A stretch of DNA of 63,490 nucleotides, the filler included, from Limisphaerales bacterium (lineage in GTDB: Bacteria; Verrucomicrobiota; Verrucomicrobiia; Limisphaerales; SIBE01): NCBI GenBank assembly GCA_044225505.1. It is 3 parts of 3 records of this genome, joined end to end, with 100 filler letters (N's around TTAATTAATTAA, not from the genome) between each part and the next. Parts side by side here need not be neighbours in the genome. Positions count along the whole stretch, not along the records: positions 43,742 to 63,490 come from JBGAIN010000154.1; 2 more parts are not named here. One strand, written 5' to 3'. Both the position numbers and the translations under genes were made by a program. Positions 39,908-60,533 of this stretch are shown piece after piece (the stretch's first letter is position 1; each line of letters opens with the position of its first letter). Below the pieces are notes generated by a model. The model saw nothing but the letters and a program-made list of their open reading frames with translations, ran no database searches and was not told where the DNA came from.

Positions 39908-39911
39908 TCCC

Positions 39912-40868
39912 ATGCGGCTCAGTCTGAAACTGTTGTCCCGAGTTGCCCTCTCCATGGCAACTTGCCTGAAATCGGGATTGCCAGTCCCCCGGTCGCTGGA
40001 ACTGAGTGCCGGTCCTGCGGATTCGAGGAGGCTGGCGGTCATTCTGGCTCGAGCTGCAGCTTGCTGCGATCGTGGTTCCACGATTTCCGATGCCCTCGAG
40101 CCGCACCGATCGGCGTTTCCGGGGTTCTTTCTGGCGGTACTCCAAGCAGGTGAGATGGGAGGTCGTCTGGTAGAAGCGTTCCAGCTGTTGCACGAGCATT
40201 GCGAGCGACTGACGCCAACGATGCGCATCTTACGCAATACCTGGCTTTGCCCTGCGGTGTGCATCCTGGCCGGATGGATTGTGCGGATCAGTTTATTGCT
40301 GTCGTTTGGCTTAATCGGCGCGGCTGGGCAAGTGGCGCAAGATTCTTTGGTGACCTGCGGCATCATGGTGGCAATCGCTTGGACTGTCTGGCGGGTGCCT
40401 TACGCGAAAGAATGGGTCGACCGCGCTTTGCTGCAGTTGCCTTGGGTTCGCACCGTCTTGATTCGTTCGGGGAGTCTCTTATTTCTGGCGACGTTCAAGC
40501 TGGTTTACGAAACGGGCGGATTCTCCGCGGTTAAGACCTTCGATCTGGCACTCGCGAGCGTGGGCAATTTGGCGCTGCGGCGGGATCTGGCCCGGGCGCG
40601 GGAAGTGATCGAAGAGGGCGACGGGTTCCCGGAAGCCTTTGAGGCGCCGGAGCTACTGGATGATTGGATAAAAGGGTCGCTCGCTACCGGGGCGATTTCC
40701 GGAAAGCTAGGCCCAAGCATCGCGCAAATCATTAAGACGGAAGCAGTGGCGTTGGAATCGGCGTTGGAATTGTTCAACCGCATCCTGCAGAGGCTGTTGG
40801 CGTATTCGATCGTTCTCTCCATCGTGGGAACGTTGCTCTTTTGCCTTAGTTCGGCGCCTGGAAGATGA
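39912..40868 (+). CDS. Type II secretion system F / PilC family protein
   Basis: L.SGLP...SL, G.TISDAL....FP....AGEMGGRL, repeated in the second half. Confidence 0.8.
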   Translation: MRLSLKLLSRVALSMATCLKSGLPVPRSLELSAGPADSRRLAVILARAAACCDRGSTISDALEPHRSAFPGFFLAVLQAGEMGGRLVEAFQLLHEHCERLTPTMRILRNTWLCPAVCILAGWIVRISLLLSFGLIGAAGQVAQDSLVTCGIMVAIAWTVWRVPYAKEWVDRALLQLPWVRTVLIRSGSLLFLATFKLVYETGGFSAVKTFDLALASVGNLALRRDLARAREVIEEGDGFPEAFEAPELLDDWIKGSLATGAISGKLGPSIAQIIKTEAVALESALELFNRILQRLLAYSIVLSIVGTLLFCLSSAPGR

Positions 40869-43741: not shown

Positions 43742-43881
43742 AATCCTCCGCACAACGAGATGACGCCATCCAGCCCCGGTTTGCGAGTCTTCCTCGAGTT
43801 ACCTAAGAACGCTTTTCAGTTCCACTTACTGTGGACGAATCCATCCAGAAGAGATGGAGACTACTGGCGCGGGCCGATTAT
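43742..43881 (+). repeat. 140-nt terminal direct repeat of contig 3 (left copy)
   Basis: Identical by eye to 63351-63490 (aatcctccgc...ggccgattat). Confidence 0.95.
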
Positions 43882-46800
43882 GGCATCTGTTTCTCTGAAG
43901 ATTTCAGACAACTCCCGATTCGCCACAGACCAACCCTTCTCCTTGAGGATACTGTCTCTCATCGGTTGGGATTCCTTCAACCGATTGTAGAAGTAATCAT
44001 TCCAGCGCTGGTTATGTGCTTGTTTTTCTGTTTGCCTCGCCAATTTCTGCTGGTATCGCTCGAGTGCACCTCCAGGTTTCGCGCCGCCACCGGCAGGCGC
44101 CGCGCGCGGGATGGTCGTTTTTGGCACGGTGGCTGGCCCACGAACCTGTGGCACGGTCGGGACCGTAACCGGTGCGGGCGGGGCGGTGGGCGGCTTGACC
44201 GGAGGTGGCGGAGATCCCTTGGGACCGGCGGGGCCAATTTTTCCCATGGCTACAGCGACCAGGGCTTGTCCGGTGGCATTTCCAATGATACGTCCCATAT
44301 CCTTGTCAGAGGTCTTGGGATCGAGCATTTTTACGATAAGCTTGTCTCCGTACGCGATACTGAGTGCTTCCTTGACGTTCCCGTTGCCGACCGCAGTGGC
44401 TACTGCTGGAAGTTTGCCCACCGTGGTCGTAACTTCAGTGGCCACGGCCACCATTGCCGCTGCGGGCAGCATAACGACGTTCACTGGATTGAGGACGTCC
44501 AAGCCCACCTCTCCAAGGCCCATGGCAAAACCCTTGTAAGCCTGGACGAGGTCAGTTCCAGTGGGGTCGATATTTGCCAATGGGGAATTGGCGCAATAGG
44601 CATAGAGATTGAGTCTTTGAGGTTCCTCGAGCCAGCTTGATTTAATGGTCCCGGCAAAGGGATCGACCCGGAGGAAACGGCCCAAAACTGGAGACTGGAA
44701 TCGAGCCTCCAAAAAGTTCAAACCACTCTCGCGATCGCGCTCTTTTTGTGTGAACTGGTACGGATCGGTGGTCTTGAACAATTTCTGAACGTGACGCGGA
44801 AACCCGAAGGGATAAAAAGAAGTTTCCTCCACCAGGACACCGTTCGCATCGGCCATCACGGCGGAGGATCCGAGGTGATCCTGATGGTAGTACCGGATGG
44901 TGAGGGCTTCGTCAGGAAGTGAAAGCGCCGCCTCGCTCTGGCCCTGGACGAACACTCCCTCACCCGGAGCCAGAGCTTCGGGAAGATTGGAAAAGCCGCC
45001 CAGAACGTCGGAAAGGCGTGCCTGCCAGCGTTGGAACATGGCGTCAAACCGCCAGACGGTCGTGTTCACGGGGGCGAATCCCTCGAGGTCTATGGCCTCG
45101 CCCACGGCGCCGGGATGGAACGTTCCTCCGGCAGGCGCGCTCGAGGGGGAGGAGTCCCCAGTGTGTTGGCCCCGGACAGTCACGGTCGAGTCAGCGACCG
45201 CGTTGATCCAAAGCACGACACCAGCCGGAATAGTATCGGTCGGCGCAAGCTCTTTAAAATCGCGTTCCGCCGCATCCCAGCGGAGCATCGCCGCTACCTT
45301 GCCCTCGAGGGCTAATTGCATCCCGCCGTTGGTCGCAGTCACGCCGAGTGAGCAGAGATTCCATCCACGCCAAAGCCGCAGCCGTTGGACCTGCTGAGTC
45401 GAGGAAAGCGTTCCCGTAACGCGGGCGATCCGTGTGTTCCCGCACCATACATATTTGGTGGGCACTCCGTTCTGCCGCACTTCGAAGTATTGATCGACAT
45501 AAACGGTGCTATCGATCTGGCCTGGGCTCATGTCTGAAGAACCTTTGGCAATCACTTTCTTCGTGATGCGCCGGTCCCGATGGTCGTAACTGTACTCGGC
45601 TCGAAGTTCAGAGTTTCCCACCGCCACAAGGCGGTCCTTAAAGTCCCAAGTGGTTTGGAGCCCGTCTATATCCAGCATGTTGCCGTTGGCATCGTATGGA
45701 TAATTGCGGATTTGGGATTGAGGATTGAGGATTCCAGTGAGAGCGTGCGGCCCGGGCGGATCTGTGGGTTGGCGTCCCATGCGACTGGTCCGACCGGCTG
45801 TTCCGCCGTACTCCATGCTGCCGAGATCCGTGACAGAACGACCCTTGTCGAAGTGCGGCATGTTGGAGGTCTGAGAGAGCATGTTACCGATGCGGTCGTA
45901 CCGGTAATGGATTTCGCCGTCGTTTCGTGGTGGAGCGCCAGGGACGGCGAAGGAATAGCGGATACCAGTCAGGCGATAGAGATCATCATACTCGATCTGC
46001 TGCCCGTTCCTGCGCGCGTCGCCTTCGGCAACGGAAGAGCTTGAGCGAAGATCGGTAATGGACCTTAGTTTGGACGCGGCATCGAAGTCGTAAGCAAAGG
46101 TAACATGCTCGAGGCCAAGCTGGGGTTGCCGCGTCCGCACTTGATTGAGACGCAAACGCGAGTCGTACTGGCTAGTGCTCTGCACTCCGTTTCCGTAGGC
46201 AAGAAACGTGAGTTGGCCCGCGGGCGAATACAGCATGTTGGAAATGATACTTCCGGTAGGCCCGCCCAGAACGCGTTGGCCGAGACTCCGTTCGTTGTAT
46301 TCGTAGCGAACGAAGTCGTTGTCGGGGTACTGAACGCTCTTCAAACGATTGAGCGAATCGAACTCGAAGCCCGTGCGGAAGGAGACCAATCCCCCATGCA
46401 GGGGATCGATCACGCGCTTCACCACCGCGATGGCGTGCTCGCGCGCGTCGTAAAAGTAGTGCTCCTCACCGGTCCGGTCCCAGACATAGGTCAGCAGTCC
46501 GGACGTATTCCGGGCGGTCATGGCGCTGCCGTCACCCACCTCGAGGTTGGTGAAAGGCGAATCGTAGAAGTAGGCGACATCAGGTCGGTTCAGCGGCGTG
46601 ATCGGCTGGGACGGATTGAACGCGGGGAACCGAGGGTCATTGTCATGGTAATCCTCGCTCAGCACCCGGTTCACTCCGTCAAAGGTGTAGCTAATCCGCT
46701 GGGCCTTGGCATCGGTAGTTTCGATGAGATTCGAGGCGTCATCGTAGGAAAAGCGCATCTGACCGCGATCCGGGTCATTCATAGAGATGTTCCGCTTTAA

Positions 46801-49800
46801 CCCGTCGTAGGCGAATTCCTTGACGTTTTGTTGCGAGTCGGTAATCCGAGTCAATTGGTCGTTCAGATCATGCGCGTAACGGGTCGTCCATGCGTTGGCC
46901 ACGTCCGCCGGTGTCCCGTCATCGTTCAGCCGGACAATTTCGTCCACACGAATCAGACGTCCCAGGCCATCCTGGAAATGGGCCATGGAAGCGCCGAAGT
47001 GGAGAGAGCCCGGATCCGTTTGGTTCGCGTCGTAAGACCGGGTCAGGAAAGGCTCGTAAACCGTCTTCTCGAAACTGGCGTCCGGATTGATGCTTCGGAT
47101 TTCCCGCAAGGTCGCGTCATACCAAGTGGCCGTTTTGTGAGCCTTCTCCAAATTCAAGCTGACCAGATTGCCTTGTTCGTGAAAGAGTCCCGTCCAACTT
47201 GGGTCTTCGATGTTCTCATAGTCCAAAAGCTCTTCGAGGCCTTTACCGACGAGTGAAAAGAAAGGGTTCAGCGCGAGGGAGTCGCTCTTGCGCGCGTTGA
47301 AAGTCACCGCGCCGTTGACGATCACAGCCGGGGAAGAACCAGCGCCGTAAGGCTCCGCCTCCTTTTTGGTCATCAGCTCACGCCCCAAGCCATCTGTAAA
47401 CTCACGGGAGATCATGTAATGGTCGACCTTATGTGGGTATGCGCCCGGGACTTTATCGAGCAAGCGGGTTTCGATGTAGTTCACCACGCCTTGTGTTCCA
47501 ACTGGAACGGCTAAAGCGTAACTGTATTCCGAGGTCGGATATTCGGGCGTATCCCCCGGTTTGACGATCGCAGTCAGGCGGGCGAACTGATCAAACGAAT
47601 AGCGAGTGGTGTTCGTATTGAAATCTGTCGAGGCGATGACAGTGCCGAAGGCTTCGTCGTAGGTCGCTCGAAAGGCTAGCGGTGGCTTGCCTCCACCAAC
47701 ATGGATTGTCTCCGCCACGGCATAGTTATGGAAGCGGGGGTCGTAATAAACTTCCCGGGCGTGGCCTTTGGCCACATCGACCACGCCACCCGGAGCATCT
47801 GCGAGCGGATCCAAAAGCACAACGGCGTTGCCATAGGCGTCGAATTTGTTTCGAGAGCTCTTGATGTAGGCGGCCGGATCCGAGGGCTCAACCCACTCCC
47901 GTTCCAAAGTGAGGTTTCCAGTCGTCACAAGGCCGAAATTCTCGCCGGCAAAAGTCTCGTCATCGTAGAAAGAGTCTGTGCGGGAAATGACCTTGCCGTT
48001 CAGGCTCTTGATCTCTTGCCGCTTGGGATGGCGCAAGATCCAAGCTGCCGTGTTCATCGCATATTCGGTGGTGGTGACGCGCTCGTCATTGAAGGCCGAG
48101 CGATCCCCGTTTTCGACAATGCCGTAGTCCACGCTCAAGGTCTGGTTTCCGAATTGGTCATAGCTGGACTCGGTCTCGGTCAGGCGTTCAACGCCTTGAC
48201 CGAGTTCTTTGCTGACTTTCGAGCTGGCCAATGGATGGACAAACTTAACGGTCTGGCCGTTGGTTCCTGTCTTCAGGATCACAGGGGGCACCGTCCAAGT
48301 CGTCGACGCATCCCAATAAACGCCTCCGTCCTCTTCCTCGGCCATCTGGCGGAGCAACTTGCCTTTCATCGGCTCATGCGCGCTGCCAGTGTCAAAGAAC
48401 GAACGCGTGACTAACGTAGGCGCGGTGGCGTCGCCCACATCGATCTGTTCAACCCTGGCAAAACCGCGGAACTGTTTTTGTTTGGGGTCGTAGTACCCAT
48501 CATGGTACCGGTATTCGGTCCGGTATTCATGTCCCAAAGAATCAGCGGTTCGAACGGAGGCCACCACCGGAATCGCGAATGGCACAATGTTCGGCCAGGG
48601 CTGGCCTGCCGCTTCATCTTCCAGCCGAAACTCGATCGAGCTGCGGTATCCCATCGTCGTCACTCGGCCGAGTCCATTGGCGATCGAGTTGAGGATGTTG
48701 GGTGTCGCCCCGCAGTTGATAATCTCGCCCAGGTCGATCGTTTGCAGCCGCGGTTCGGAAGCCGCATCCGCATAGACGAGGTCGGTCGTGCCATTGCCAT
48801 TCATATCAGCCCACCGGACGACGGCCCGTTGCCCGATGACCAAGGGCATGTCGACAATCTCGTTTCTCGGGCCCAACTGGTAATTGCCGCGGTTAATCCA
48901 ATACCAGAGTTGACCCGGCGCGGCGCGTTCCAAGACGATGTCGACCATGCCATCGCCGGTGACATCGGTCAGCTTAGCCCGGCGAAGTTGCTCAGGGCTC
49001 GGTGTCATGCCGGGCCACGGCACGGAGACGGCTTCGGCAAAGCGGCCGTACCCGAGGCCTGCCTTTACCTGTAGGCGTTCAGATTCCAAACGGATGAGGT
49101 CCGGCAAGCGATCTCCGTTGAAATCGCCGATTTGCACAGCCGGATCTGCCAGATCGAAAGCGCCGGGAGGTTCCACCGTGAGACTGGGAGCATAACGTGA
49201 ATCGCCCAGGTTGAACCAAATGCGGTAAGCGAAACCGCCGCCGACGCTGAGACTTTGGATGACGTCCATACGTTTGTCGAAGTCCAGATCCGCGGTTCGA
49301 ACCCCGGCGACACCGAAAGGACTGGGCGGCGAAGCATCTGGAGCAGCCATCCTCTGGCGCTCAGCCCAGCTGAGATTTCCCTGATTAGCGAAGAAGAACA
49401 CATCCTCAGCGGCCGATTTGACGACCAGATCCGCCAGGCCATCTCCGTTCATGTCCGCCAGGTGGGCCACGGCCAGGGCCGATTGCAGATTGACGCTCCA
49501 CGCGCGTGGGTCCCCCTTGAACTCGAGGGCAGACTGCCATTGTACAGCTCGGGCGCTCTTGATAATCCCTTTGTTCAAGAAGGCCTGGTGAGGCAGATCA
49601 CCGGCGAATGTTCGAATCAGGTCTGGCAACCCATCGCCGTTTACGTCGGCCAACTCCACAAACTCATTATCCATCACCGACGCGGGTTCATTGGTGCCGC
49701 CCAAGGCTTGGCCGCTGGCGGATAACGTTGCTGGGGGGTTGCAGACGGCATAGCCCAGAGTGGTGGGCGGCAGACGGCTGACTCCGTCGGAGCCCACAAT

Positions 49801-50763
49801 CTGCACGCTGGCGAGCAAGGACCAATGTGTGTTCGTGCCGGCGTACTTCAAGTAACCGAGTTCATAGCGATGGTTGAGGAGATCGGGCTGGCCATCACCA
49901 TTCCAATCGCCTTTGAAGTGGCCTGGCAAGTCCACTCCTTGGGTGCCGGTCAGGACCTGGCGCATGCGCTTGCCACAGCGCACCACGAAGCCCGATCGGC
50001 AATCCTCGAACCAATCGGACCGGTCTTCATACTCGAAAACCACGAAATGGAAGCTCGCCCATGGAGGCACTCCCGGACCGTAGCTGATGCGGTGGAGGAA
50101 TTTCTGGTTTAGGTTCTGATCACCGTCAAACGAGCGGTACTCATAGCGGATGGTATTGCCGCGCGTGTCGGTTTCTTTCTCGAGCAACCAGCCAAAGATT
50201 CGGCCGGTGGCGGCGTCTTCAATTCGGGCACTGGAGGTGAGACCGAAATCCAGTCTCGTTCCGTCAGGCAAGGTGCCTTCCCAATGGTCGCTCACTTGCC
50301 GGTATCGGACGAACGCACCTTCGTTTTCGCAGAAGTAAAAGCCATCCGCCTGCGGGACCAACTCTTCCTTCGTCTCGTTGATGAACCGGTCGGAACGATC
50401 CAGGCCAAGATCCTGGCCGTACAGAGGAATACCCCGATCGGAACGGCGTTGGATCATAGGCACGGGCAACGACCAACCGTAACCAACGGCGCCGTTCCCG
50501 CCGCCGCCCTCGTAACGCAGCTTAAGGGTGGGCTGATGTCCAGCAGTGCCGGGCGGCAAACTTAGGCCAATGCCATAGCATGCCGTTCCCGTATTAAGTG
50601 TGGGCTGAAAGGACTCGCCTAATCCTTCGATCGAACCGGGTCCTTTGGGCAACGAGATGGCCGACGGTGAAACACCATTCTTATCGGCGCCCTGAGCCAC
50701 AAGCTCAACAAGGAAAACGATCAGGCAGCAGTACGACTCAAATCGCCTTTTCACCGCTGTCAC
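43861..50763 (-). CDS. Fused TcB-TcC-like toxin: SpvB/TcaC N-terminus, FG-GAP propeller, TcdB middle domains, RHS/YD repeats, RHS core, variable C-terminal cargo
   Basis: ISLPKGPGSI.GLGE.F, GNG..GYGW, DWF.D.R.GF, D.NGDG..D repeats, FRGFARVEQ.D, YD repeats, YYHQDHLGS, FTQKERD.ESG, RFLRVDP, PLANIDPTG. Confidence 0.9.
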   Translation of the reverse strand: MTAVKRRFESYCCLIVFLVELVAQGADKNGVSPSAISLPKGPGSIEGLGESFQPTLNTGTACYGIGLSLPPGTAGHQPTLKLRYEGGGGNGAVGYGWSLPVPMIQRRSDRGIPLYGQDLGLDRSDRFINETKEELVPQADGFYFCENEGAFVRYRQVSDHWEGTLPDGTRLDFGLTSSARIEDAATGRIFGWLLEKETDTRGNTIRYEYRSFDGDQNLNQKFLHRISYGPGVPPWASFHFVVFEYEDRSDWFEDCRSGFVVRCGKRMRQVLTGTQGVDLPGHFKGDWNGDGQPDLLNHRYELGYLKYAGTNTHWSLLASVQIVGSDGVSRLPPTTLGYAVCNPPATLSASGQALGGTNEPASVMDNEFVELADVNGDGLPDLIRTFAGDLPHQAFLNKGIIKSARAVQWQSALEFKGDPRAWSVNLQSALAVAHLADMNGDGLADLVVKSAAEDVFFFANQGNLSWAERQRMAAPDASPPSPFGVAGVRTADLDFDKRMDVIQSLSVGGGFAYRIWFNLGDSRYAPSLTVEPPGAFDLADPAVQIGDFNGDRLPDLIRLESERLQVKAGLGYGRFAEAVSVPWPGMTPSPEQLRRAKLTDVTGDGMVDIVLERAAPGQLWYWINRGNYQLGPRNEIVDMPLVIGQRAVVRWADMNGNGTTDLVYADAASEPRLQTIDLGEIINCGATPNILNSIANGLGRVTTMGYRSSIEFRLEDEAAGQPWPNIVPFAIPVVASVRTADSLGHEYRTEYRYHDGYYDPKQKQFRGFARVEQIDVGDATAPTLVTRSFFDTGSAHEPMKGKLLRQMAEEEDGGVYWDASTTWTVPPVILKTGTNGQTVKFVHPLASSKVSKELGQGVERLTETESSYDQFGNQTLSVDYGIVENGDRSAFNDERVTTTEYAMNTAAWILRHPKRQEIKSLNGKVISRTDSFYDDETFAGENFGLVTTGNLTLEREWVEPSDPAAYIKSSRNKFDAYGNAVVLLDPLADAPGGVVDVAKGHAREVYYDPRFHNYAVAETIHVGGGKPPLAFRATYDEAFGTVIASTDFNTNTTRYSFDQFARLTAIVKPGDTPEYPTSEYSYALAVPVGTQGVVNYIETRLLDKVPGAYPHKVDHYMISREFTDGLGRELMTKKEAEPYGAGSSPAVIVNGAVTFNARKSDSLALNPFFSLVGKGLEELLDYENIEDPSWTGLFHEQGNLVSLNLEKAHKTATWYDATLREIRSINPDASFEKTVYEPFLTRSYDANQTDPGSLHFGASMAHFQDGLGRLIRVDEIVRLNDDGTPADVANAWTTRYAHDLNDQLTRITDSQQNVKEFAYDGLKRNISMNDPDRGQMRFSYDDASNLIETTDAKAQRISYTFDGVNRVLSEDYHDNDPRFPAFNPSQPITPLNRPDVAYFYDSPFTNLEVGDGSAMTARNTSGLLTYVWDRTGEEHYFYDAREHAIAVVKRVIDPLHGGLVSFRTGFEFDSLNRLKSVQYPDNDFVRYEYNERSLGQRVLGGPTGSIISNMLYSPAGQLTFLAYGNGVQSTSQYDSRLRLNQVRTRQPQLGLEHVTFAYDFDAASKLRSITDLRSSSSVAEGDARRNGQQIEYDDLYRLTGIRYSFAVPGAPPRNDGEIHYRYDRIGNMLSQTSNMPHFDKGRSVTDLGSMEYGGTAGRTSRMGRQPTDPPGPHALTGILNPQSQIRNYPYDANGNMLDIDGLQTTWDFKDRLVAVGNSELRAEYSYDHRDRRITKKVIAKGSSDMSPGQIDSTVYVDQYFEVRQNGVPTKYVWCGNTRIARVTGTLSSTQQVQRLRLWRGWNLCSLGVTATNGGMQLALEGKVAAMLRWDAAERDFKELAPTDTIPAGVVLWINAVADSTVTVRGQHTGDSSPSSAPAGGTFHPGAVGEAIDLEGFAPVNTTVWRFDAMFQRWQARLSDVLGGFSNLPEALAPGEGVFVQGQSEAALSLPDEALTIRYYHQDHLGSSAVMADANGVLVEETSFYPFGFPRHVQKLFKTTDPYQFTQKERDRESGLNFLEARFQSPVLGRFLRVDPFAGTIKSSWLEEPQRLNLYAYCANSPLANIDPTGTDLVQAYKGFAMGLGEVGLDVLNPVNVVMLPAAAMVAVATEVTTTVGKLPAVATAVGNGNVKEALSIAYGDKLIVKMLDPKTSDKDMGRIIGNATGQALVAVAMGKIGPAGPKGSPPPPVKPPTAPPAPVTVPTVPQVRGPATVPKTTIPRAAPAGGGAKPGGALERYQQKLARQTEKQAHNQRWNDYFYNRLKESQPMRDSILKEKGWSVANRELSEIFRETDAIIGPRQ

Positions 50764-53700
50764 TTAATTTCCCGAGTACGCATATGTTTGGAAGAAGATC
50801 CTGATATCCAGGACGCCATTGCCATCACGCTGCCCGTTTGGCAGCAGCGTGCCATTGATGAAGCGCTGAATCCCTTCGACGCGGTCGTTGTGGAGCGTGC
50901 CGCCAGGAATGATTAACAGCCAGCGTGTGTTCCACACGGACCGGCCAATCAACCGGCTGTCGCTAATCGTTTGAGCAGGATCGAAACTCCCGCTGTCATG
51001 ATAAGCCCGAAAGCGGGCGAACTGCCGAATGTCCCCGAGTTCATCGGATAGTGTGTCGTTCGTCGGAATCCAACGTGGGTTACTCAAGGCCCCTTCACTG
51101 AGTGGAAAGGGCACCGGCAGTTTTTGATCCAAAATCTTCCACTCGCGAATCGTGCCCGCATTACCGGTGGGCGAACGAAGCACGTCATTGCCGACAGGCA
51201 CGAGATACACGCGCGGAGTGTTGATCATGCCCGCCCCCAGATTGTTGTAATTGGCGAACCAGACACCCACCGTGCGAATCTTCGTGGCGAAATGGGTTGA
51301 GTCGTAGTCGTTGTCGCCTCCACCCGCGGGCCAACCGAAGAAATTCTGGCCGAAATTGATGGTGGTGGAGAACGGAATGACTATCGCCGGCTCGACCGCT
51401 TGCTGAGGTTGAAAGGGAATGCAGTATCGCTTGAATTCCTGGAAATCCAGCAGATTGTCAACGATGTTCCGCTGGAGTTCTTCCCGCCACAGCTTGCTTC
51501 CTTCCGCTCCGGGTTGAATCCGGAACAGCTCCGAGCGCAGAGAAAAGCGGCCAGTCTCAGTTTGGGGATTGTTAAACCCGAGTTGTCCCTTGAGAACCAG
51601 GTCCCAGTTCGTAATCATGCGAGCCATGGGATCGGCAAGCCCGGCGTCGCCTCGTCCAGCGCCGGTATGCGGTTGCCCGCCTTCAACGAGCCCAAGCGAC
51701 CTCGAACGGATGATGCTCGTCAAGAAATTGACTCCCGGCCCGCGCGAATCATTGTCTCCGAGGTTGGTTTCAAAATCGTAGGCCCGCGCTGACAGGTACA
51801 CATACATGGCGGCGAGGTCGAACTGAGCGCGGTACTTTTGCAGGGCGTCATTGCGAAAGATTCTGAAGGCCATGTCCTTGTAGCGATAGGACTGGACCTG
51901 AGTGGCGGTTTGGGCGCGAAAGCGAAGCCGGTCCTCCAGCAGCCGTTGTCCCCGGCTTAAGACGGACATTTGTTTGCTGATCGCTTGTTGCAGGGCTTCT
52001 TGAAGGGTAAAGATTTCCAGACGCAGAATGGCTTCCTGCCGGACGAGTTGCCGCAACTTGGCGATTTCTCCTTTGATCGCCTGTGTGTTGCTCAGATCAG
52101 TCAGTTCGATGCTTTGCTGGGCAGCTGCACTCTCTTTGGCATGCTGATATCCCAGTTGCTCGCGCCCTTCATCGTCAGCCGCATCTTGCATCAAAGACCC
52201 GGCGACACCTGCCACCAATTTGATGCCACCGCGAATCGGTGCGGTGAAGTCGTTTGCAAATCCCTGCACTTTCGTAATGGATTCCGAGGCGGCTTCACCG
52301 GCAATTTGGACGGCTTTGGCCCAGAACGACCAGCGTTGTTGCAATTGAGCGGAACGCCTGATCATCGCGTTCAAGTCTTCCTGTTCAGCCTTGGTCTTGT
52401 ACAGGATCTTAATGGTTTCCGCATTCACATCATATTGAGACTCGATCAGGTCGGCAGTCTCTTGGATCGTTTGGATGTGGTTGTCATATTCACGCAGGGC
52501 TTTTTGAAATCGGGCTCGCCCTTGAAGCAGTTCGGAGCGGGTCTGTTGAATCTCTCCGGGCGCCCTGCGTTTCTGGGTCCACGCGGCCGGCTTGATCAGG
52601 CCGAGGCCGTCAGAGGCAACCTCGAAAATGACTCCTTTGGGATTCGAAGAGACGTCGCCACCGACGAGGACCTGGTAATCCCGAAAGATCGCCGTGAATT
52701 GCTGCGTCGGGGGCGAATTCTCACCCATGAGTTCGGTGCGATCGACGTAGTCATAATGGTATATGTCCGGCCCGTCATAGCCACTGGGATAGGTTCCCGT
52801 CGGCCCGATATCGTCCGGGTAGGGATATCCGAAAATCTCGATCAACCGGCTTTGAAAGTCCGCTTCGTGTTCAACGACGGCTTTTTGAAATTCAGAGACA
52901 CTATCCGCTTGCCGGCGCAGCAACTGCGTGGAGTTATTGGCATGGTTAAAGACGGCAATGGCATTGTTCATCGCCCGGACGGCCCGTTCATAGGTCTGTT
53001 CGAAGTGAGTCTTTCCCTGGGCAACCTGATTGGGATCGATGTCAAACGGGACGACGTTCTTGGCTAAGCCGAGCGGGTTTAAGCCTGCGTCAGCCATATC
53101 TACCTTGGACTCAATATCGGTATAAGCGGCTGCGATGTCGCGCAGCTCCGTTACAGTGGTGCGGTCAACTTTTTGGATGCCCGTGTGGCTCGGATTCAAG
53201 TCTTTTTCCGGAAGAAGCGCATTGGCCACCAACCAATCAAAATAGGAGCCCTGGCCAGCGCGGCTGCCCCATTCGGCGAGCCCCCAAGCCCGGTCTTCTT
53301 GGGCATCCTGATAGCCTTGCCATTGCCCTTCCGGGTCCTCGACATATGCGCTTCTGTAAGTGAGACTGACAATTTCGGCGCCCGTCTTGGCCAGCGCAGC
53401 GGCGGCAGCGGCAAATTTCCTTTCGTCCAGAAAGTCCACCGAAACAGGCACACCGCCGACGAGCACGGCCTCAATGCGTGGCACCCAGGTGAAGTTGGGA
53501 TTCCGCAGCAGACGGTAGTAATTCTTGATCCCGGTCAGATAGGAACCCCAAGCATCGCCGTGGCCCTGGGGATAGAGCACCTTGGCATCCGCTTCGTCGA
53601 TAGTGCCGGATACATCCCCGCTTTCGTTGCGAATGTTATAGTTGAGCGCATAGGCGACTTCGCCGCCGTTGATGTCGCTGGTGAAATTCCATATGAGACG

Positions 53701-56700
53701 GTTGTAAAATGGATACGTCGTGATCAGGGGCAGCTTGGAGTTGTCGCGGCCCCGCAGGAGTGCAAGTTCCTCCTCGATCAAAGTAGCGGTCTGATTCATG
53801 AAGCAGTGGATGGAAGTCGCCTGGGAGCCGTAAACGCGATCGTCTGTGCCGAATGCTATTGTCGGATCCGCGGCATCCGCGTAAGCCTCGTTCCCTAAAA
53901 GTACAAACAGGTCGGCCAGCCGCCCGGCCGCCAATAACAATGCGTCATTCGCTGGTCCATAGTTGACGGCCGGCAACCCGTTGACGCTCAAACTCATTCC
54001 CCGGCGGAGGACGGTTTCGTACACCTCGATCAGTCCGAGTCTGTTAGCCGCTTCCTGATTCAGAGGCACAGCGCCGACGAATGGCGGGCCTGCCTGGCTG
54101 ATCATGCTGACGATCGTGTTAACCTGGTTGTCCTGATACGACTTGAATTTCTGTTCAAAAGGATTGATGCCGCGCAGCACACGCTTAATCCAGCCTTCGG
54201 CCAGCATGGGGGACGTCCAGGCGCTCCAGCCCTCGGTATTATTCGCAACCGCGCATAAGGGCGCCGCGCCCGATCGCGCCGAGGGCAGCGGCCGATAGCG
54301 GCAGATGAAGTAGTTGTCGGTCAAAGTGAATAGACCAGGCCCCTCAATCGTGATATCAAGTGCACCCTCACCCGTGGCGGGTTTCGGGCTAAAAACCGCC
54401 CACTGGTCGGGTGGATTAGTCGGGGGAAGACCGTCCACGGGCGGGCGCGTGCGCCATTCAAAGACGTAGGCATCCGCCCGCCCCGCAAAATCACCACTAT
54501 GACGGAGGGTGAGTTTCTCATCGAAAGGATTGTCCGATTCGATGACTTTAATCTCACCCTGATAGGTCGGACAGGTCACGCGAATGACCGCCAAACTAAT
54601 GGGCTCAGCTGGGGCACTCAGGTCGTTGCTGTTGGCAAATGCGAGGGTGACATATCCGGTCCTCTGCGCGAAGCCTGCGGTCAGGGCCAGTGAATCAAAG
54701 CCTTTAGAATCAGGTGGGACTTCGGTGACCGTTGCGGTCAGAGCCCCGAGTGCCGTAACGGCTGCTTGAAAAGTGGAATCCGTGCTCAAACCCGAGAGGA
54801 TGGCCCTGTCGCGAGCCGTGAGGACGTTCAGGAGAAGGTAATATTCCCCAGCGGGCGGTTCCACAAACCCGCCTTTGAACTTCAGCTTATGATTCACCGG
54901 GTCGTACGAGACGCGCTTGCGCAAGTGGGGCGGAAGTGTCGGGAAGAGTCTCAAGCCTTTCTCCGTGACAGTGGCAAGGTCGCCCGGAAGCTGGCTTAGA
55001 TCCACCTGATACTCCCGAGTGGGATCGATCAACTTGACACTGGTTCCCTGGCCCAGCTCCGAGGCTTGCTGATAGATGATCTCTACACTCGTCTGCAGGC
55101 TGATGTCCGGCAAACCGAACTTCGCTTTAACCAGCGTTTCGGCCACACGCAACTCCGGTGTAACCGGCCAACTGATGGTGTAGTTGATGTCGGTCGGAAT
55201 CTCCCGCGTTCCGCCAGGTCTCCGATCCAGCCAGGGAACGCACGCTCCGACCGACGGCTGTTGAGCTTCCGGGAAGAAAAAGCCGATCTGGACGGGGTAA
55301 AAGTAGCGCATGACGATTTCTGCCGGGCCGCCATCGTTGCCCGCCGCGCGCGCCCAGAAGTTGAGCTTTCGGTCGCGCCAATAAGGTCCGGAAACGCCGC
55401 TGGAAGCCGGGCATGCCTGAAACAGACTGAGAGGAAAGGGCGGTTGCACCAACGTCCCAGCCACCCCTGGATAATTGAAAAAGAAGGGCGCTTCCTCCGC
55501 GATCACCTTATAAACGATGTACTTCCACTTCAATGCGGCCGCAGGATCTCGATACTTGAGCAACGCATAAGGTTCGGAAGTAGAGGCCGAGCCCAAATCA
55601 TCGCGCAAGGCAAAAACGGATTCGCCTTGGCCTCCGTCGCGAATCAGAGCGTGCTCGTCGTTCGGATTGAACCCGGCGAGACCAGGATTATTCTGAAAGT
55701 ATATTCGATAATCCTTTTGCGTGAGCGGGTCGATCGGACCGCCGCCTTTCAAGCTGGCGATGATGATTTTGCTGGGATCAGACGGCCAGACAGCGTTATA
55801 CCGCTTGACGTAGGATGGCCATTGCACCCCTTGATTCACGTTGGACCACCACACCTCCAGAATTCCCTTGTTGACCGCGAAAATCTGTTTAGTGGTGAAC
55901 TCCGCCGGATCTTGAGAATCGCCGTCGTAAACCTCCCAATCGTATCGGTTGCCTTCCGGATAGTGAATGTATCCGGCGCGCGGTCCGGCGTGGCTCGGCT
56001 CGACTATTTCAGTGCCGATGTTCCAGTTGTTGATGGCGATAGCCTGCAGACCCGGGCTGGAAGATTGAACGGCCGCATCATCGTGGAACAGAGATCGCAC
56101 CACTTGGAAAGCGACGGCGTCGCCTTCGTCATACTTGAGCAACGACCATCCCGCTTGCGTTGTGGAAAATGAGTTGTTTGCCACTTGGTTGGCGTGACCG
56201 GCGGGCTCCTGGAAGGGCATCAGGGTTGCGGCCTTTCCCGCAGGAATTTTGACGTCCGGCCCTATCACAGTGCCTTGGCTGCGGACATACTTTTGATACT
56301 TTGCGGGAGTAGTGGGCCAGGCGGCTGTATAGCGGTGCAATTCATACGGCCAAACCACATTGGCTATGCCGCGTTTCATCCAGTATATCTCGATGTCTTC
56401 TGGATTGGCGGTTTTGCGTATCGCATAGAGAAAACCGGACTGGGGCGAAGGCTGCTTGGCATGCAGGTAAAGGAACTGGGATTCAGGCGATCCGGTCCCC
56501 AAACCGCGGATGACGACAGGAGGCGCCGGGGCGGCGGGAACGACAAAGGGCAAGATTTGAGAGCCGAGGTCAACTTGGTTGGGCGTTCCATCGGGGACCA
56601 GATTTGAACGGAGCGCGACGATCTCGATCCCAAGGAATTGCCCGTTTTGGCGAAACTCGACCAAGAGAAGCCCGGTTTTGTCTTTGGCGTAGAGACTGCC

Positions 56701-57426
56701 GTTTGGGGTCCGGATCAGGTATGGCACGGGATCATTGGGCAGAGCCGTATTCCAATGGAACGTCTGCTGGATCTCAGAGATATTTACGATGGGCGCTTTG
56801 GTCTGTGGAACCGGAAGGGGGTTGGCCTTGAAATCGGAGCCAGGATCCGGGCTGGGATTGTGTGTGTGATAGATCCCCACCGGATCGCTGAATGGGCGCC
56901 CGTCAATCAGGTATTTGACCGGGCCAATGGGACTGCTATCCGCCTTTTTCCAAGTGATTTCGACAAAGCCAGCTTCGTTCGCAAAGACCTTTTTGACATC
57001 GGGCAGGTAGAAGGCTTTCACCCCAGGATTGATCAGCGGCGCTTTGCTCAGATCCGCCTGCAGGGCTGCGTCCGGAATGATTTCCTCGCCGAAGAGGAAA
57101 TCGGCCTGACGTGGTTCGGCCACAGGCTGTGCGAAGCTGGATTGGACGAGATAGTAAGTGCCGTTGTTCGGAGTAACCACGGCGCCAGCAGCCCCGACAT
57201 TTCCACTGTAAAGAGCCATACTCTTGGGCTGGGGCGAACCGGTCAACCCCGGGACTGCGCTTGGCGCAGGGTTATAAATCTGATTCTGATACAGGAAAGG
57301 TGCGAGTGAATCGGCCTGCTGAGCTCTGGCCGAAAGGATCGGCAGCCATCCTATGAGCAGCAGGCCGACGACGTTCCAGTGGGGCCTGCGCGTGGACAGG
57401 AGCCGCCCGCTTTTAGGAGAGTTCAT
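50764..57426 (-). CDS. Large secreted protein with TcA-like helical shell/channel and TcB-binding C-terminus
   Basis: Signal peptide (ARA-QQ), beta/Pro-rich N-half, long coiled coils around a small-residue hairpin. FDLA...YL.ARAYDFE, KIRTVGV.F, WLL.IP and DIRIFFQ parallel TcA C-terminal motifs. Abuts the TcB-like gene. Confidence 0.65.
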   Translation of the reverse strand: MNSPKSGRLLSTRRPHWNVVGLLLIGWLPILSARAQQADSLAPFLYQNQIYNPAPSAVPGLTGSPQPKSMALYSGNVGAAGAVVTPNNGTYYLVQSSFAQPVAEPRQADFLFGEEIIPDAALQADLSKAPLINPGVKAFYLPDVKKVFANEAGFVEITWKKADSSPIGPVKYLIDGRPFSDPVGIYHTHNPSPDPGSDFKANPLPVPQTKAPIVNISEIQQTFHWNTALPNDPVPYLIRTPNGSLYAKDKTGLLLVEFRQNGQFLGIEIVALRSNLVPDGTPNQVDLGSQILPFVVPAAPAPPVVIRGLGTGSPESQFLYLHAKQPSPQSGFLYAIRKTANPEDIEIYWMKRGIANVVWPYELHRYTAAWPTTPAKYQKYVRSQGTVIGPDVKIPAGKAATLMPFQEPAGHANQVANNSFSTTQAGWSLLKYDEGDAVAFQVVRSLFHDDAAVQSSSPGLQAIAINNWNIGTEIVEPSHAGPRAGYIHYPEGNRYDWEVYDGDSQDPAEFTTKQIFAVNKGILEVWWSNVNQGVQWPSYVKRYNAVWPSDPSKIIIASLKGGGPIDPLTQKDYRIYFQNNPGLAGFNPNDEHALIRDGGQGESVFALRDDLGSASTSEPYALLKYRDPAAALKWKYIVYKVIAEEAPFFFNYPGVAGTLVQPPFPLSLFQACPASSGVSGPYWRDRKLNFWARAAGNDGGPAEIVMRYFYPVQIGFFFPEAQQPSVGACVPWLDRRPGGTREIPTDINYTISWPVTPELRVAETLVKAKFGLPDISLQTSVEIIYQQASELGQGTSVKLIDPTREYQVDLSQLPGDLATVTEKGLRLFPTLPPHLRKRVSYDPVNHKLKFKGGFVEPPAGEYYLLLNVLTARDRAILSGLSTDSTFQAAVTALGALTATVTEVPPDSKGFDSLALTAGFAQRTGYVTLAFANSNDLSAPAEPISLAVIRVTCPTYQGEIKVIESDNPFDEKLTLRHSGDFAGRADAYVFEWRTRPPVDGLPPTNPPDQWAVFSPKPATGEGALDITIEGPGLFTLTDNYFICRYRPLPSARSGAAPLCAVANNTEGWSAWTSPMLAEGWIKRVLRGINPFEQKFKSYQDNQVNTIVSMISQAGPPFVGAVPLNQEAANRLGLIEVYETVLRRGMSLSVNGLPAVNYGPANDALLLAAGRLADLFVLLGNEAYADAADPTIAFGTDDRVYGSQATSIHCFMNQTATLIEEELALLRGRDNSKLPLITTYPFYNRLIWNFTSDINGGEVAYALNYNIRNESGDVSGTIDEADAKVLYPQGHGDAWGSYLTGIKNYYRLLRNPNFTWVPRIEAVLVGGVPVSVDFLDERKFAAAAAALAKTGAEIVSLTYRSAYVEDPEGQWQGYQDAQEDRAWGLAEWGSRAGQGSYFDWLVANALLPEKDLNPSHTGIQKVDRTTVTELRDIAAAYTDIESKVDMADAGLNPLGLAKNVVPFDIDPNQVAQGKTHFEQTYERAVRAMNNAIAVFNHANNSTQLLRRQADSVSEFQKAVVEHEADFQSRLIEIFGYPYPDDIGPTGTYPSGYDGPDIYHYDYVDRTELMGENSPPTQQFTAIFRDYQVLVGGDVSSNPKGVIFEVASDGLGLIKPAAWTQKRRAPGEIQQTRSELLQGRARFQKALREYDNHIQTIQETADLIESQYDVNAETIKILYKTKAEQEDLNAMIRRSAQLQQRWSFWAKAVQIAGEAASESITKVQGFANDFTAPIRGGIKLVAGVAGSLMQDAADDEGREQLGYQHAKESAAAQQSIELTDLSNTQAIKGEIAKLRQLVRQEAILRLEIFTLQEALQQAISKQMSVLSRGQRLLEDRLRFRAQTATQVQSYRYKDMAFRIFRNDALQKYRAQFDLAAMYVYLSARAYDFETNLGDNDSRGPGVNFLTSIIRSRSLGLVEGGQPHTGAGRGDAGLADPMARMITNWDLVLKGQLGFNNPQTETGRFSLRSELFRIQPGAEGSKLWREELQRNIVDNLLDFQEFKRYCIPFQPQQAVEPAIVIPFSTTINFGQNFFGWPAGGGDNDYDSTHFATKIRTVGVWFANYNNLGAGMINTPRVYLVPVGNDVLRSPTGNAGTIREWKILDQKLPVPFPLSEGALSNPRWIPTNDTLSDELGDIRQFARFRAYHDSGSFDPAQTISDSRLIGRSVWNTRWLLIIPGGTLHNDRVEGIQRFINGTLLPNGQRDGNGVLDIRIFFQTYAYSGN

Positions 57427-57469
57427 GGTTTTGGCTGGTAAAAGGAGCGAATGCTCGGACGGCTGCGCG

Positions 57470-58627
57470 TCATTCTTGACCGGCTCGTGCTTCCGCGCCC
57501 TGCCGGATGACGATGCGGTCCACTTGCGCCTTCAACTCGGCCATGGCGCGCTTTAAGTCCTGAATCTCCAAGTCTCGCTCCTGGACAATCTGATGTAGTC
57601 CTTGGATGGCCGCCAACGCGACCCCGTCAGCATCGACGGTCGCTATGGCCGTCGAAACGTTTCCGAGACCAAACGCGGCCCGAAAATCTTGCGCCATCGG
57701 GCCGACATGTTTCACCCCGGCCTCTTCGGCCTTGAAACGCCACTGTTGAATGGGCAACTTCGCCACCCTTTCGAGAATGGACGCAGTATCCACCGGGGTG
57801 AAGTCGGCCTTGGCGTTGACGTCTGAATCGGAATTGATCGTCCCGCTGGCGCGAATGCTGCCGATGACGTGGAGCTTGTATCCCGGAGTAGCCGTGCCGA
57901 TCCCGACATTGCCGGAAGTTGCAATGGCGATTCCCTGTTCTGGCCCTCGGGGTAATCGTCCCGTCATGGCAATCAGTTTCAGCGTTGAGTCATCGAATCT
58001 AACGTCGGCTCGGTTGACGATTCCCATTGTCAATCCCGTTTCGGCATTGGGGCTGCCGAAGGCGATGCTTCCCCCGCTCCCGCCCGTCCGAAAAACCGCT
58101 CCGCCAAGGAGATCCAGCCGATAACTGGTGGAGGGGGGGGTGCCGATGCCTAAGTAACCGTCAGCTTGGATGAGATCACCTTTCAAACCAGCGGCGGTGA
58201 GCGCTTGAAATGCGTAGGGCGCCGCCAGCATCTGCTGCCGGGGAACGATCGGACTGCCATCACCCACCTTCAACTCGAGGAAGACTGAACCGTTCGCGGC
58301 GAAAACAGCACCGAGATCCTTGCCAGAAGTGTCTTTCGGACCGAGGACCAGGTTGAAACGCCCTTGCACAACGGGCACCTTTGGCCCCAGTCCGGGACCG
58401 CTCTGTCCATTGAACTTTTGCGGGCCCCATACGGGGGCACCACCGGATTCGACAGCATAGAGATTAATCTCGAGCTCATAATCGTTGGTTGGCATCGGGT
58501 TGCCAGCCGCATCCAGCAATTGCCCTTGGTAATTGATCAGCTGGGTGATCGTTTGTCCGAGGACCCCGGCGCGATCCACACCGACAAGTGCGAACAGCGC
58601 CACGAGAAGGAGTATTTCTTTTTTCAT
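57470..58627 (-). CDS. Secreted fibre/adhesin-like protein with peptidase S74 intramolecular chaperone
   Basis: Signal peptide, INYQGQL.D..G.P domain, G.VGIGT..P repeats, SDVNAK...W.FK...HVGPMAQDF...D..GVALAAIQGL, coiled coil. Confidence 0.85.
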   Translation of the reverse strand: MKKEILLLVALFALVGVDRAGVLGQTITQLINYQGQLLDAAGNPMPTNDYELEINLYAVESGGAPVWGPQKFNGQSGPGLGPKVPVVQGRFNLVLGPKDTSGKDLGAVFAANGSVFLELKVGDGSPIVPRQQMLAAPYAFQALTAAGLKGDLIQADGYLGIGTPPSTSYRLDLLGGAVFRTGGSGGSIAFGSPNAETGLTMGIVNRADVRFDDSTLKLIAMTGRLPRGPEQGIAIATSGNVGIGTATPGYKLHVIGSIRASGTINSDSDVNAKADFTPVDTASILERVAKLPIQQWRFKAEEAGVKHVGPMAQDFRAAFGLGNVSTAIATVDADGVALAAIQGLHQIVQERDLEIQDLKRAMAELKAQVDRIVIRQGAEARAGQE

Positions 58628-58668
58628 TTTGGCTGTCAGTTGACTGAGTATTGCGCTTGCGAATCGAC

Positions 58669-60513
58669 CTAAAGCCCGTCATTCAAGACACCGATCCGTG
58701 AGGCTTGGGTTAAACGAAAGCTTCCTAAGGCGTAGATGGTTTTAGCGTGCAGCCCGGTGATCGTTTCCCGATAAATCCCGCCCAATTGGTTGTCGCCCCA
58801 ACCGGCAACGGCGAGTTGGTCAGGATCAGCTGCAGTGAACTCGAGTTCGATTCGGCGGGTGATAGTAAACGACTCGATTCCTTCCGGGACCTTGCGTTCA
58901 AAGCGATCGTCCAGGTTGTCGTGATCCGGATGGTACCGGTGTTTGAACGGGTTGAGTGGATCGTCAAAGTCAATCCTGACCTGGCAGGTGAGTTTACCGG
59001 CGCCGAAGCTCCCCGCACCAGTCAACTCCACCGGCTTGGCAAAACCAAAGGCCGGTGAACTTATTCGTCGCGCCACCGCCTGGCCATCCCGCAGGGTTGC
59101 TCCCGAGAATCGCGGAATCAGCGCGTCGTCCGTCACCAAAACAAAGCGGCCCGGCTGATCGACGATTTTCAGCGAGGGATCGTCGGGATTGGCTTTCAAC
59201 GTTCCTGGTTTAAACATTTGCAGCACCTTCTGCAGCAATTGCACCTTGCCGGCGTTATCCACGTGCAGAATCACTCGAAATTGAAGAGGCGAAGCTGTGG
59301 CACTGGGCAAATCAGCTGTGGCAATGCTGGCCGGTTGATTGACCTTTTGTATCGCTGCTGTCCCGACCCACAAGCCGGCTCGCGGATGAGGCGTCGCGGC
59401 CGGATTGCTTTGAGACGAGCCTTGGAGCGAAGCCCTCGAAGCTCTAGCGGCGTACGTCTTAAGCCCTTCCGCGCTGACCGGAACCAACTGCCTGAAACCC
59501 GCGCCGTTCGAGACTTCCAACAAACTTTGATAGAGCGCCCCATTGGAATTCGCCGAAGGAACAAACTCAGGCATCAGATTCCGATTCACTTCGAGTCTCA
59601 AAATCCATTCTTCTCCGGGCGCGATGGCGGTCTGCTGCAGCGCGCCAGTCAATGGAATCCAGCTGAACTCACCTTGGGCAGCGTTCTGCCGAAAATAGGA
59701 AAGGGGCACAGCTCCAGCCAGAGCAGGAGACCTGCTATCGGCGGGGTTGCCCGAAGCAATTGGCCGCACCGTGAATGACGCCGGAGAGGGGGAGGTGTTC
59801 TTGATTCGCAGTGTCTGCTCGATGAGGAGCCGGCCGTACCTCAATCCGTCCCGCTGCTCCAATTGGAGTTGCACTGGACCAGTGTAAGTGGAGTGGCCCT
59901 CGCAATAGATCCAATAGGCCATCCCACTGCTCAGGACGGTCGTGGCCGGGTTGGAAATCAATTCCCATTGGCCGGCGGCACTCAGCCAATACGCGGGCTT
60001 TCCAGCATGAGCGGGAGAGCCCGCAAAAAAGGCTTGGAAGTTAGGCAGGTTATTTCCACCCACAGAAAAACCCACGAGGTTGAACGAATCCGCCAGCCAA
60101 CGCGCCGAGCTAACCACCGGCTGGCCGGACAGATTCCACGTCGTCGCTCCCACGCCGTTCTTAAGCTTAACCAGATAAGTTTGCCCACCGCGAAGGGTAA
60201 ACAGGTTGCGCGTTTCGCGGGCGGTGTGATCGGCGGGCAAATAAGTCAGCCAATTAGGCTGGCCGGGAAGCAATTCGTTGGGGTCCTGAATAAATTGGAC
60301 AGGTGAAAAACGCTGGTTCCACGCCCAAACGCTCTCGATGGGCATCCCTTTGAAAATACTGTCGCAGTCGTTTGGCTCAGGCTGCACCTCCAGGTAAACC
60401 GCACTCCAGCCAGGTTGGAGCGGAATCGTCTGGGTCGCCCACTGCCCGAGAAGAGGCACGGTCCCGCAGCCGAGGACGAGAATGATCAGGCCAACAGAAA
60501 AACGACGAATCAT
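58669..60513 (-). CDS. Secreted hypothetical protein (beta-rich, L.PGW.. N-terminal module)
   Basis: AAGGAG RBS before ATG 60513; signal peptide MIRRFSVGLIILVLGC; motif NPFKHRYHPDHDNLD. Confidence 0.75.
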   Translation of the reverse strand: MIRRFSVGLIILVLGCGTVPLLGQWATQTIPLQPGWSAVYLEVQPEPNDCDSIFKGMPIESVWAWNQRFSPVQFIQDPNELLPGQPNWLTYLPADHTARETRNLFTLRGGQTYLVKLKNGVGATTWNLSGQPVVSSARWLADSFNLVGFSVGGNNLPNFQAFFAGSPAHAGKPAYWLSAAGQWELISNPATTVLSSGMAYWIYCEGHSTYTGPVQLQLEQRDGLRYGRLLIEQTLRIKNTSPSPASFTVRPIASGNPADSRSPALAGAVPLSYFRQNAAQGEFSWIPLTGALQQTAIAPGEEWILRLEVNRNLMPEFVPSANSNGALYQSLLEVSNGAGFRQLVPVSAEGLKTYAARASRASLQGSSQSNPAATPHPRAGLWVGTAAIQKVNQPASIATADLPSATASPLQFRVILHVDNAGKVQLLQKVLQMFKPGTLKANPDDPSLKIVDQPGRFVLVTDDALIPRFSGATLRDGQAVARRISSPAFGFAKPVELTGAGSFGAGKLTCQVRIDFDDPLNPFKHRYHPDHDNLDDRFERKVPEGIESFTITRRIELEFTAADPDQLAVAGWGDNQLGGIYRETITGLHAKTIYALGSFRLTQASRIGVLNDGL

Positions 60514-60533
60514 ATGCTCCTTTAGTGCAGAAC

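Follow-up and report, generated by a model that had tools for sequence, protein, structure and literature searches.

Tc toxins are three-part machines of insect-associated and pathogenic bacteria and are released without signal sequences. The nearest known class to the locus described here is the Type 3 ABC toxins, which the available part of PMC12705794 defines as a single TcA with a fused TcBC and no known receptor-binding domains. For YenTc, the available part of PMC10847048 reports no signal sequences and release through lysis by a type 10 secretion system (T10SS). We analysed a window (the whole stretch of DNA under study, 63,490 nt) made of three joined contigs of a Limisphaerales bacterium (assembly GCA_044225505.1), in which a TcA-like locus lies on contig C255 (JBGAIN010000154.1, window 43742–63490). 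Its minus-strand operon encodes, in order, a PEPD protein, a 614-aa protein, an S74 fibre-like protein, a TcA-like protein and a TcB-TcC fusion, the last being the cocoon gene. Fold models and genome context show that a TcA-type hairpin and funnel are combined with an Ig-type scaffold and a short linker, that the operon proteins have signal-like N-termini and that an intact TcB-TcC gene is adjacent. According to the models the protein is TcA-like by fold, and it is barely so by sequence. It is a new relative of the Tc toxins and not a standard TcA, and we found no earlier description of a secreted Tc-like injection system of this kind.

Like Type 3 ABC toxins, the locus has one A gene adjoining a fused TcB-TcC gene. 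Its TcB part is 24–32% identical to the 30 plasmid matches listed, several of which are fusions of the same layout. In their annotation the A genes on plasmids encode proteins with a neuraminidase-like domain, and the two that were scanned to the C-terminus match TcA_TcB_BD and ABC_toxin_N, whereas the window protein matches none of the three. When the structures of TcdA1/TcdA4 (Photorhabdus), XptA (Xenorhabdus), TcaAB (Yersinia) and YenA2 are compared with the window protein, a linker-like loop, a hairpin with tip loop and a C-terminal beta domain follow one another as they do there and have similar lengths. It differs from the solved TcA structures in being ~10% identical to them, in an ~92-aa insert, in a linker of 28 aa preceded by only ~335 helical residues, and in an N-half that is an Ig/FnIII string. 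A literature search returned no description of the TcA-like family; dbTC and the Type 3 supplementary tables could hold members, and most subscription papers lay outside the search. The terms ‘Verrucomicrobia’ and ‘signal peptide’ are absent from the available main texts of PMC7861908 and PMC12705794.

The initial annotation proposed a TcA-like channel and TcB-docking domain with a foreign N-terminal half, and placed them at 50764–54100. This interval covers the C-half (aa ~1110–2220), but the N-half under discussion lies at 54100–57426. All eight motifs quoted there occur in one open reading frame (ORF), at aa 359, 536, 1703, 1733, 1868, 2047, 2169 and 2205. TcA domains are defined in the available parts of PMC11435725 and PMC6795518; the features of the window protein are given below with their basis.

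50764–57426, minus strand: TcA-like protein, 2,220 aa, whole ORF (ORF and fold models)
57322–57426, minus strand: Sec-type signal-peptide-like N-terminus, aa 1–35 (hydrophobicity heuristic)
56311–57321, minus strand: variable N-terminal beta region, aa 36–372, including repeat unit 1 (homologue comparison)
54100–56310, minus strand: family-conserved string of Ig/FnIII-like beta-sandwiches, aa 373–1109, including repeat unit 2 (model and conservation)
53089–54099, minus strand: helical pre-channel domain, aa 1110–1446 (model and structure search)
53005–53088, minus strand: linker, 28 aa (model)
52831–53007, minus strand: descending channel helix part 1, aa 1474–1532 (model and VIA)
52555–52830, minus strand: ~92-aa insert that splits the descending helix and contains a beta-hairpin (model)
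52243–52554, minus strand: second part of the descending helix with the tip loop of the hairpin, aa 1625–1728 (model)
51766–52242, minus strand: ascending channel helix, aa 1729–1887, ending in a motif common to TcA (model and profile comparison)
50767–51765, minus strand: C-terminal funnel or TcB-binding-like domain, aa 1888–2220 (Atlas features and structure searches; no Pfam match)

The model of the C-half (aa 1110–2220, pLDDT 76) contains a helical hairpin of ~150 + 159 residues and a terminal beta domain. In model numbering, helices 365–423 and 516–606 run down, residues 607–619 form a loop and helix 620–778 runs back, followed by the beta domain; in the protein these helices lie at aa 1474–1532, 1625–1715 and 1729–1887, and the tip loop has 13 residues. 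The long heptad helices that had been described on either side of an Ala/Gly segment are seen in the model, and the channel helices are enriched in hydrophobic a/d positions (0.58–0.82 versus 0.29–0.39 elsewhere, with the best register picked and without a shuffle control). Across the family the median lengths of the channel helices are tightly kept at 58, 91 and 159 aa, and the Pro/Gly tip pattern and the funnel domain are conserved. The linker has a family median of 28 aa (range 27–40 aa), compared with 45 aa in a Serratia plasmid TcA; model residue 341, at the linker position, aligns to TcdA1 2007. The insert in the descending helix is weakly conserved, with a family median of 105 aa (range 88–177 aa). 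The helical pre-channel domain resembles alpha-solenoids (Z about 9 to TPR/toroid chains), aligns weakly to the end of the TcA shell in profile comparison and is a probable remnant of that shell.

The C-half profile matches in two pieces, split near position 300, in a subgroup comprising G419, G224, G332, G281, G386, G335, G290, G368, G140, G353, G365, G149, G057 and G042; this points to a large insertion (about 110–460 aa) just before the linker in these loci. At L050:7711-10206, the C-terminus of an A-like protein is extended by 830 aa that include a domain of the periplasmic-binding-protein (ANF receptor-like) type.

Structure searches place TcA first. With the C-half model, all 21 Foldseek matches at E ≤ 0.001 were TcA, the first non-TcA match appearing at E 1.2e-2, and when the Foldseek candidates were re-ranked by VIA, ranks 1–17 were all TcA. 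Most TcA rows aligned model residues 341–1108 to TcdA1 ~2007–2516 with Z 13.1–15.4. A VIA search of 48,161 representative chains, independent of Foldseek, placed TcA at ranks 1, 2 and 4, and among the rows listed only those of TcA reached the C-terminal domain. The alignments extend to the last residues of TcdA1/TcdA4, the C-terminal domain having been compared as part of the C-half model. Atlas features assigned the protein to the TcA_TcB_BD cluster (0.90). The proposal of a divergent TcA with a different scaffold is thus borne out by the model, in which the hairpin and the C-terminal beta domain are both present.

Sequence comparisons gave a different picture from the folds. The hidden Markov model (HMM) scan that had been suggested, with PF18276 (TcA_TcB_BD), yielded no match, whether the query was the complete protein, its C-half or its final 378 aa, compared with E ≤ 6e-48 for two plasmid TcA used as controls. 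PF18413 (neuraminidase-like) and PF20220 (ABC_toxin_N) likewise had no match in the window protein; in plasmid TcA controls, ABC_toxin_N was matched in 3/3 and Neuraminidase in 2/3. A tblastn search of plasmids with the C-half found no TcA match. In a profile comparison with plasmid TcA genes, the best block spanned 44 columns (E 1.4e-4, probability 52%). This block is the first of three TcA motif parallels drawn in the initial annotation; the other two gained no separate sequence confirmation. A deeper plasmid TcA alignment, from which L060 (one of eight rows, without the TcB-binding domain) was dropped, matched the family in hhalign at E 5.7e-4. We base the TcA identity on alignments that take in hairpin and funnel together, on the Atlas feature match and on the adjacent TcB-TcC gene. 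We do not file the protein as a standard TcA member, because it matches none of these TcA profiles and departs from the export known for the class.

The N-half is Pro/beta-rich, as had been noted for the first ~1080 aa. Pro content is 9.9% in aa 1–1080 versus 4.5% in the remainder, and the model (pLDDT 87) is a string of beta-sandwiches, nearly all beta. Its last domain (aa ~953–1085) is FnIII-like (best Z 8.3, rmsd 3.2, 102 aligned residues). Fold searches with the 1,075-aa multi-domain model, in which single domains can escape, listed only generic Ig/FnIII chains and no TcA. Internally similar segments had been reported, and they were missed by a BLAST self-comparison of the N-half and recovered by profile-profile comparison, which paired aa 328–372 with aa 510–550 (E 1.4e-7, probability 94%); 8/136 diverse homologues cover the repeat region in duplicate. 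The idea of a foreign N-half fared less well, and there is no graft. Most 50-aa bins between aa 435 and 1085 are present in at least 128/136 diverse homologues (the bin at 885 in 65), and the variable part consists of aa 35–330 plus further insertions. Judged from this sequence comparison, the N-half from aa ~435 is a conserved family core behind a front of ~330 aa that vary. The variable region of homologues carries FG-GAP, PA14, LamG, PKD, RCC1, TSP3, beta-helix or disintegrin domains. As modelled, the Ig-type scaffold appears to take the place of the neuraminidase-like cap and of the greater part of the helical shell.

The cocoon gene follows directly, its start codon abutting the stop of the TcA-like gene. 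Its features are as follows.

43861–50763, minus strand: TcB-TcC fusion, 2,300 aa (profile scans)
44893–45387, minus strand: extra ~165-aa domain just ahead of the RHS core (hhalign)
43864–44556, minus strand: cargo of 231 aa after a P-x4-D-P-x-G cleavage motif (sequence)

The fusion consists of a signal-like N-terminus, SpvB, FG-GAP, TcdB_toxin_midN, RHS/YD repeats, the RHS core and a tip. By hhalign its extra domain bears a weak resemblance (E 9e-5, probability 59%) to the N-terminus of the 614-aa partner. The cargo tip (24.3 kDa, isoelectric point 9.75, a single hydrophobic stretch) has no Pfam match; its size falls within the limit of <40 kDa given for TcC tips in the available part of PMC7861908. 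Since the TcB-TcC fusion with this basic 24-kDa tip directly follows the A gene, the locus most likely injects cargo like Tc toxins. In 24 related genes, either cocoons or modules, the tip is hypervariable and measures 170–270 aa, and 8/25 scanned tips scored above family cut-offs (Hcp four times, VanY, M35, M10-like and DUF4329). Visual inspection of 18 loci revealed no convincing small immunity ORF immediately behind the cargo.

Several related loci also contain short genes in which the core and a tip are preceded by no more than the final RHS strands and the extra domain. Orphan RHS C-terminal cassettes occur in polymorphic toxin loci, and the short genes resemble them in pairing an RHS core with a variable tip beside a full cocoon gene. 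Because 9/10 have their own signal-like N-terminus (versus 0/7 at the same site of full genes), they look like separately exported cartridges and not like silent recombination donors. In L029 the cocoon ORF stops before the core and three short RHS-tip genes come next, which suggests cargo cartridges loaded in trans; a frameshift in the L029 assembly is the alternative. Hcp domains, known from the type 6 secretion system tube, form RHS tips at L008:4299-4808, L015:14523-15044, L016:14460-14978 and L021:6552-7118, and all four of these modules are short, signal-bearing and located between the A-like and cocoon genes.

Three further genes precede the A gene in the operon.

57470–58627, minus strand: secreted fibre-like protein, 385 aa, with an S74 chaperone C-terminus (profile scan)
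58669–60513, minus strand: 614-aa secreted partner of a family without a name (ATG at 60513 and ribosome-binding site)
60534–61376, minus strand: PEPD partner, with a signal-like N-terminus, a ~130-aa domain that is conserved and a tail of surface type that varies

The 614-aa family was found in 56/56 carrier genomes versus 5/345 others, and the PEPD domain in 44/56 carriers versus 2/345 others. Profiles of both had no relative among PDB sequences, and the Atlas search with the 614-aa protein led to no named family. The PEPD domain showed no credible similarity to the fibre N-domain (E 0.02), and no fusions among the four operon domains were found in the proteins and ORFs examined. The probable role of both partners is to complete the scaffold or to tether it. 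The 385-aa protein matches S74 at E 3.5e-11. Like the trimeric MAT fibres of Bdellovibrio, as presented in the available part of PMC10769870, it combines a signal peptide, a beta-rich conserved N-domain and an S74 C-terminus. It differs from them in being much shorter, in belonging to a Tc-like operon and in a weak Bdello_MAT_N match (E 0.005) far below the cut-off (16.5 versus 60 bits).

Signal-like N-termini were scored with our own hydrophobicity heuristic. A signal-like start was found in 137/182 long A homologues versus 91/1,820 internal control windows, and in 27/27 TcB-TcC genes versus 1/16 plasmid Tc genes. Besides these starts, two constant partners and the usual lack of a cocoon set the window family apart from the plasmid systems. 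Unlike YenTc (PMC10847048, available part), the operon proteins of the window have signal-like N-termini, and among the scanned ORFs of C255 there was no lysis gene (holin/endolysin, T10SS), other contigs not having been searched for one. We infer that the operon subunits cross the inner membrane by Sec and are not released by lysis.

The family comprises 1,934 representatives at 50% identity (E ≤ 0.001). In an even draw across the phylum, an A-like gene was present in 56/401 genomes, a count that includes related and therefore not independent carriers. Among the 55 other carriers, three had a match to the TcB query, five to the SpvB family and five to either (two candidates per genome were scored, and 8–24 kb of four carriers lay outside the comparison). 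Four single-contig carriers had no TcB or SpvB match. In the neighbourhoods of 10 well-assembled carriers, the 614-aa family was found in 10/10, fibre N-domains in 5/10 and a cocoon gene in 0/10. Given the co-occurrence of the two partners with the A gene and the TcB match in just 5/55 carriers, we take the conserved unit to be the needle and two partners, with the cocoon optional. A second sample of 51 loci was found through the window's own peptides and therefore favours close relatives. There, 27 loci continue with a cocoon gene or short module, 16 have none (with at least 1.8 kb downstream) and eight are uninformative. Of 21 genomes without a cocoon next to the locus, 7 had a TcB match elsewhere, so a cocoon can act from a separate site. 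In a tree of 81 sequences (midpoint root), most cocoon-adjacent copies fall in one clade, and gain and loss are not distinguishable. Cocoon-less loci often continue with a peptidyl-prolyl isomerase (PPIase)-type gene and some with a giant cadherin/Big_9 adhesin (L097:3541-12999, L109:2811-13001, L045:3708-4760 and L047:7710-8774).

A shorter A-like subfamily (~1,100 aa) lies beside the cocoon gene in G095 and G105 and matches the family in hhalign at E 2e-8 and 9e-6. Its members at L116:9819-13166(-) and L119:11668-15795(-) have signal-like starts, one with a PKD domain, and adjoin fibre genes and a TcB-TcC fusion.

With modest confidence, we lean towards the locus being a Sec-exported Tc-like syringe whose adhesins or fibres bind a surface, whose hairpin enters a membrane and whose cocoon tip passes through. 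The predicted pentamer, pore, partner binding and target would fit together as follows. After Sec export of the subunits across the inner membrane, five A subunits would assemble with the 614-aa and PEPD partners into a prepore, the partners completing, capping or tethering the scaffold. The variable N-terminal modules and the S74 fibre would bind a surface, and contraction of the linker would push the hairpin tip into the target membrane. In the cocoon-bearing clade, a docked cocoon would then release its self-cleaved tip via the channel; the three-gene A module would be the conserved unit, and the cocoon an add-on kept or recruited in some lineages. The targets are most likely neighbouring microbes, with microbial eukaryotes somewhat likelier than bacteria because no clear immunity gene was seen.

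A number of results weigh against this syringe. Since 50/55 other carriers match neither the TcB query nor SpvB, cargo injection cannot be what the family does in general, unless something else transports the cargo. RNA evidence for the locus amounts to almost nothing, with three small pieces of contig from a single run. The linker is short, an insert interrupts the channel helix, and the tip region has a mean Kyte-Doolittle (KD) value of –0.25 in the window protein, compared with +0.28 in the family and +0.62 in the Serratia TcA. The weakly hydrophobic tip and short linker, together with the cocoon-free neighbourhoods and the adhesin-type domains that every component carries or adjoins, would also suit a stalk that does not insert. 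The TcA-derived hairpin would then be a rigid oligomeric rod showing adhesin modules (N-terminal domains, PEPD tails and S74 fibres) on the producer surface, with insertion lost and the RHS cocoon separate. We consider this unlikely, as helix lengths are tightly kept, the Pro/Gly tip pattern and funnel are conserved, a cocoon gene or short module comes next in over half of the 51 loci, and a cocoon also accompanies the second, short subfamily. Quite unlikely, in our judgement, is an export conduit, assembled in the periplasm after Sec with its tip inserted in the producer's own outer membrane, through which cocoon tips or passengers would be threaded out. All parts would indeed end in the periplasm after Sec, several loci have PPIase-type chaperone genes, some tips (Hcp-like) are not obvious toxins, and neither the contig nor the 10 neighbourhoods, where no family-directed search was made, showed a dedicated outer-membrane transporter. 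However, PA14, LamG, FG-GAP, disintegrin and S74/collar fibres are typical extracellular binders that would be hard to account for inside the periplasm.

Other adverse points concern the kinship itself, and some of them feed the view that a long antiparallel coiled coil and a generic beta domain resemble TcA by chance. Sequence support is weak at the two hhalign E-values given above, and the TcA-like ORF has no Pfam, NCBIfam or PDB-sequence match (phmmer and profile searches for PDB). The structural matches to TcA have a root mean square deviation (rmsd) of 9–19 Å or more and TM-scores near 0.2. Z scores of 13–15 are close to the VIA background for helical models, SMC and chemoreceptor coiled coils reaching Z 10.6–12.3. 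Against chance stand the TcA rows, which alone span the hairpin and the C-terminal domain together, and the adjacent TcB-TcC gene; moreover, the profile block and the Atlas features agree with all three structure searches in pointing to TcA. We regard a chance resemblance as highly improbable.

For the family as a whole, we tentatively entertain, at somewhat less than an even chance, a widespread Sec-exported and cocoon-independent membrane-piercing organelle. It would combine a TcA-derived needle, two undescribed subunits and swappable adhesins for attachment to or permeabilising of cells, and would have become an injector with cargo cartridges in one clade. If this is true, classical Tc toxins belong to a far larger family, as a single specialised branch that is released by lysis. 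The TcA-like family described here escapes the TcA profiles used for genome surveys, and it alters supposed constants of Tc systems, namely the export route, shell architecture, partner set and need for a cocoon. The role of a TcA-type channel without TcB-TcC and the origin of the Tc syringe become testable now, and two unannotated protein families (614-aa and PEPD) gain leads to their function.

The genome holding the locus is 9.0 Mb, with GC 57% and completeness 95%. It contains two further TcA-like copies, on contigs C53 and C22. The C53 copy is 57% identical to the window protein and has a cocoon. The C22 copy (L124:7212-16031(-)) is 38% identical, its A gene lies in two ORFs with the break inside the channel insert, and no cocoon gene was found within the 24 kb read. 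Most labels of the closest related loci are Verrucomicrobiota, Verrucomicrobiae or Limisphaerales, and the habitats recorded for the best-matching public runs are bioreactor and activated-sludge metagenomes. One more gene lies upstream of the operon.

61500–62249, plus strand: extracytoplasmic function (ECF)-type sigma factor, divergently oriented (profile scan)

A similar sigma-factor gene is near the operon in 2/51 loci, and it is a possible regulator.

The ends of C255 overlap by 140 bases, the sole such case among 342 contigs, and contigs from 3/4 public runs join window 63350 back to 43742. Because this loop runs through a multi-copy repeat, C255 may be either a collapsed repeat or a real 19.6-kb circle. 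A repeat of ~310 bp lies at window 62439–62760, with a second copy at 14769–15090; genome-wide there are 13 near-full copies (87–94% identical to the 62439–62760 copy, itself counted) and many partial ones. Rfam gave nothing credible at window 60000–63490, which includes the repeat; it is possibly a small non-autonomous mobile element. Outside this genome, an archaeal plasmid (Salinirubellus, L055:1775-18536) carries a conventional TcA-type gene with a TcB-TcC fusion. Unrelated to the TcA-like locus, contig C248 (window 41301–43067 and 38597–40868) encodes a TPR + GT41 glycosyltransferase, an FHA protein and a T2SSF-domain protein.

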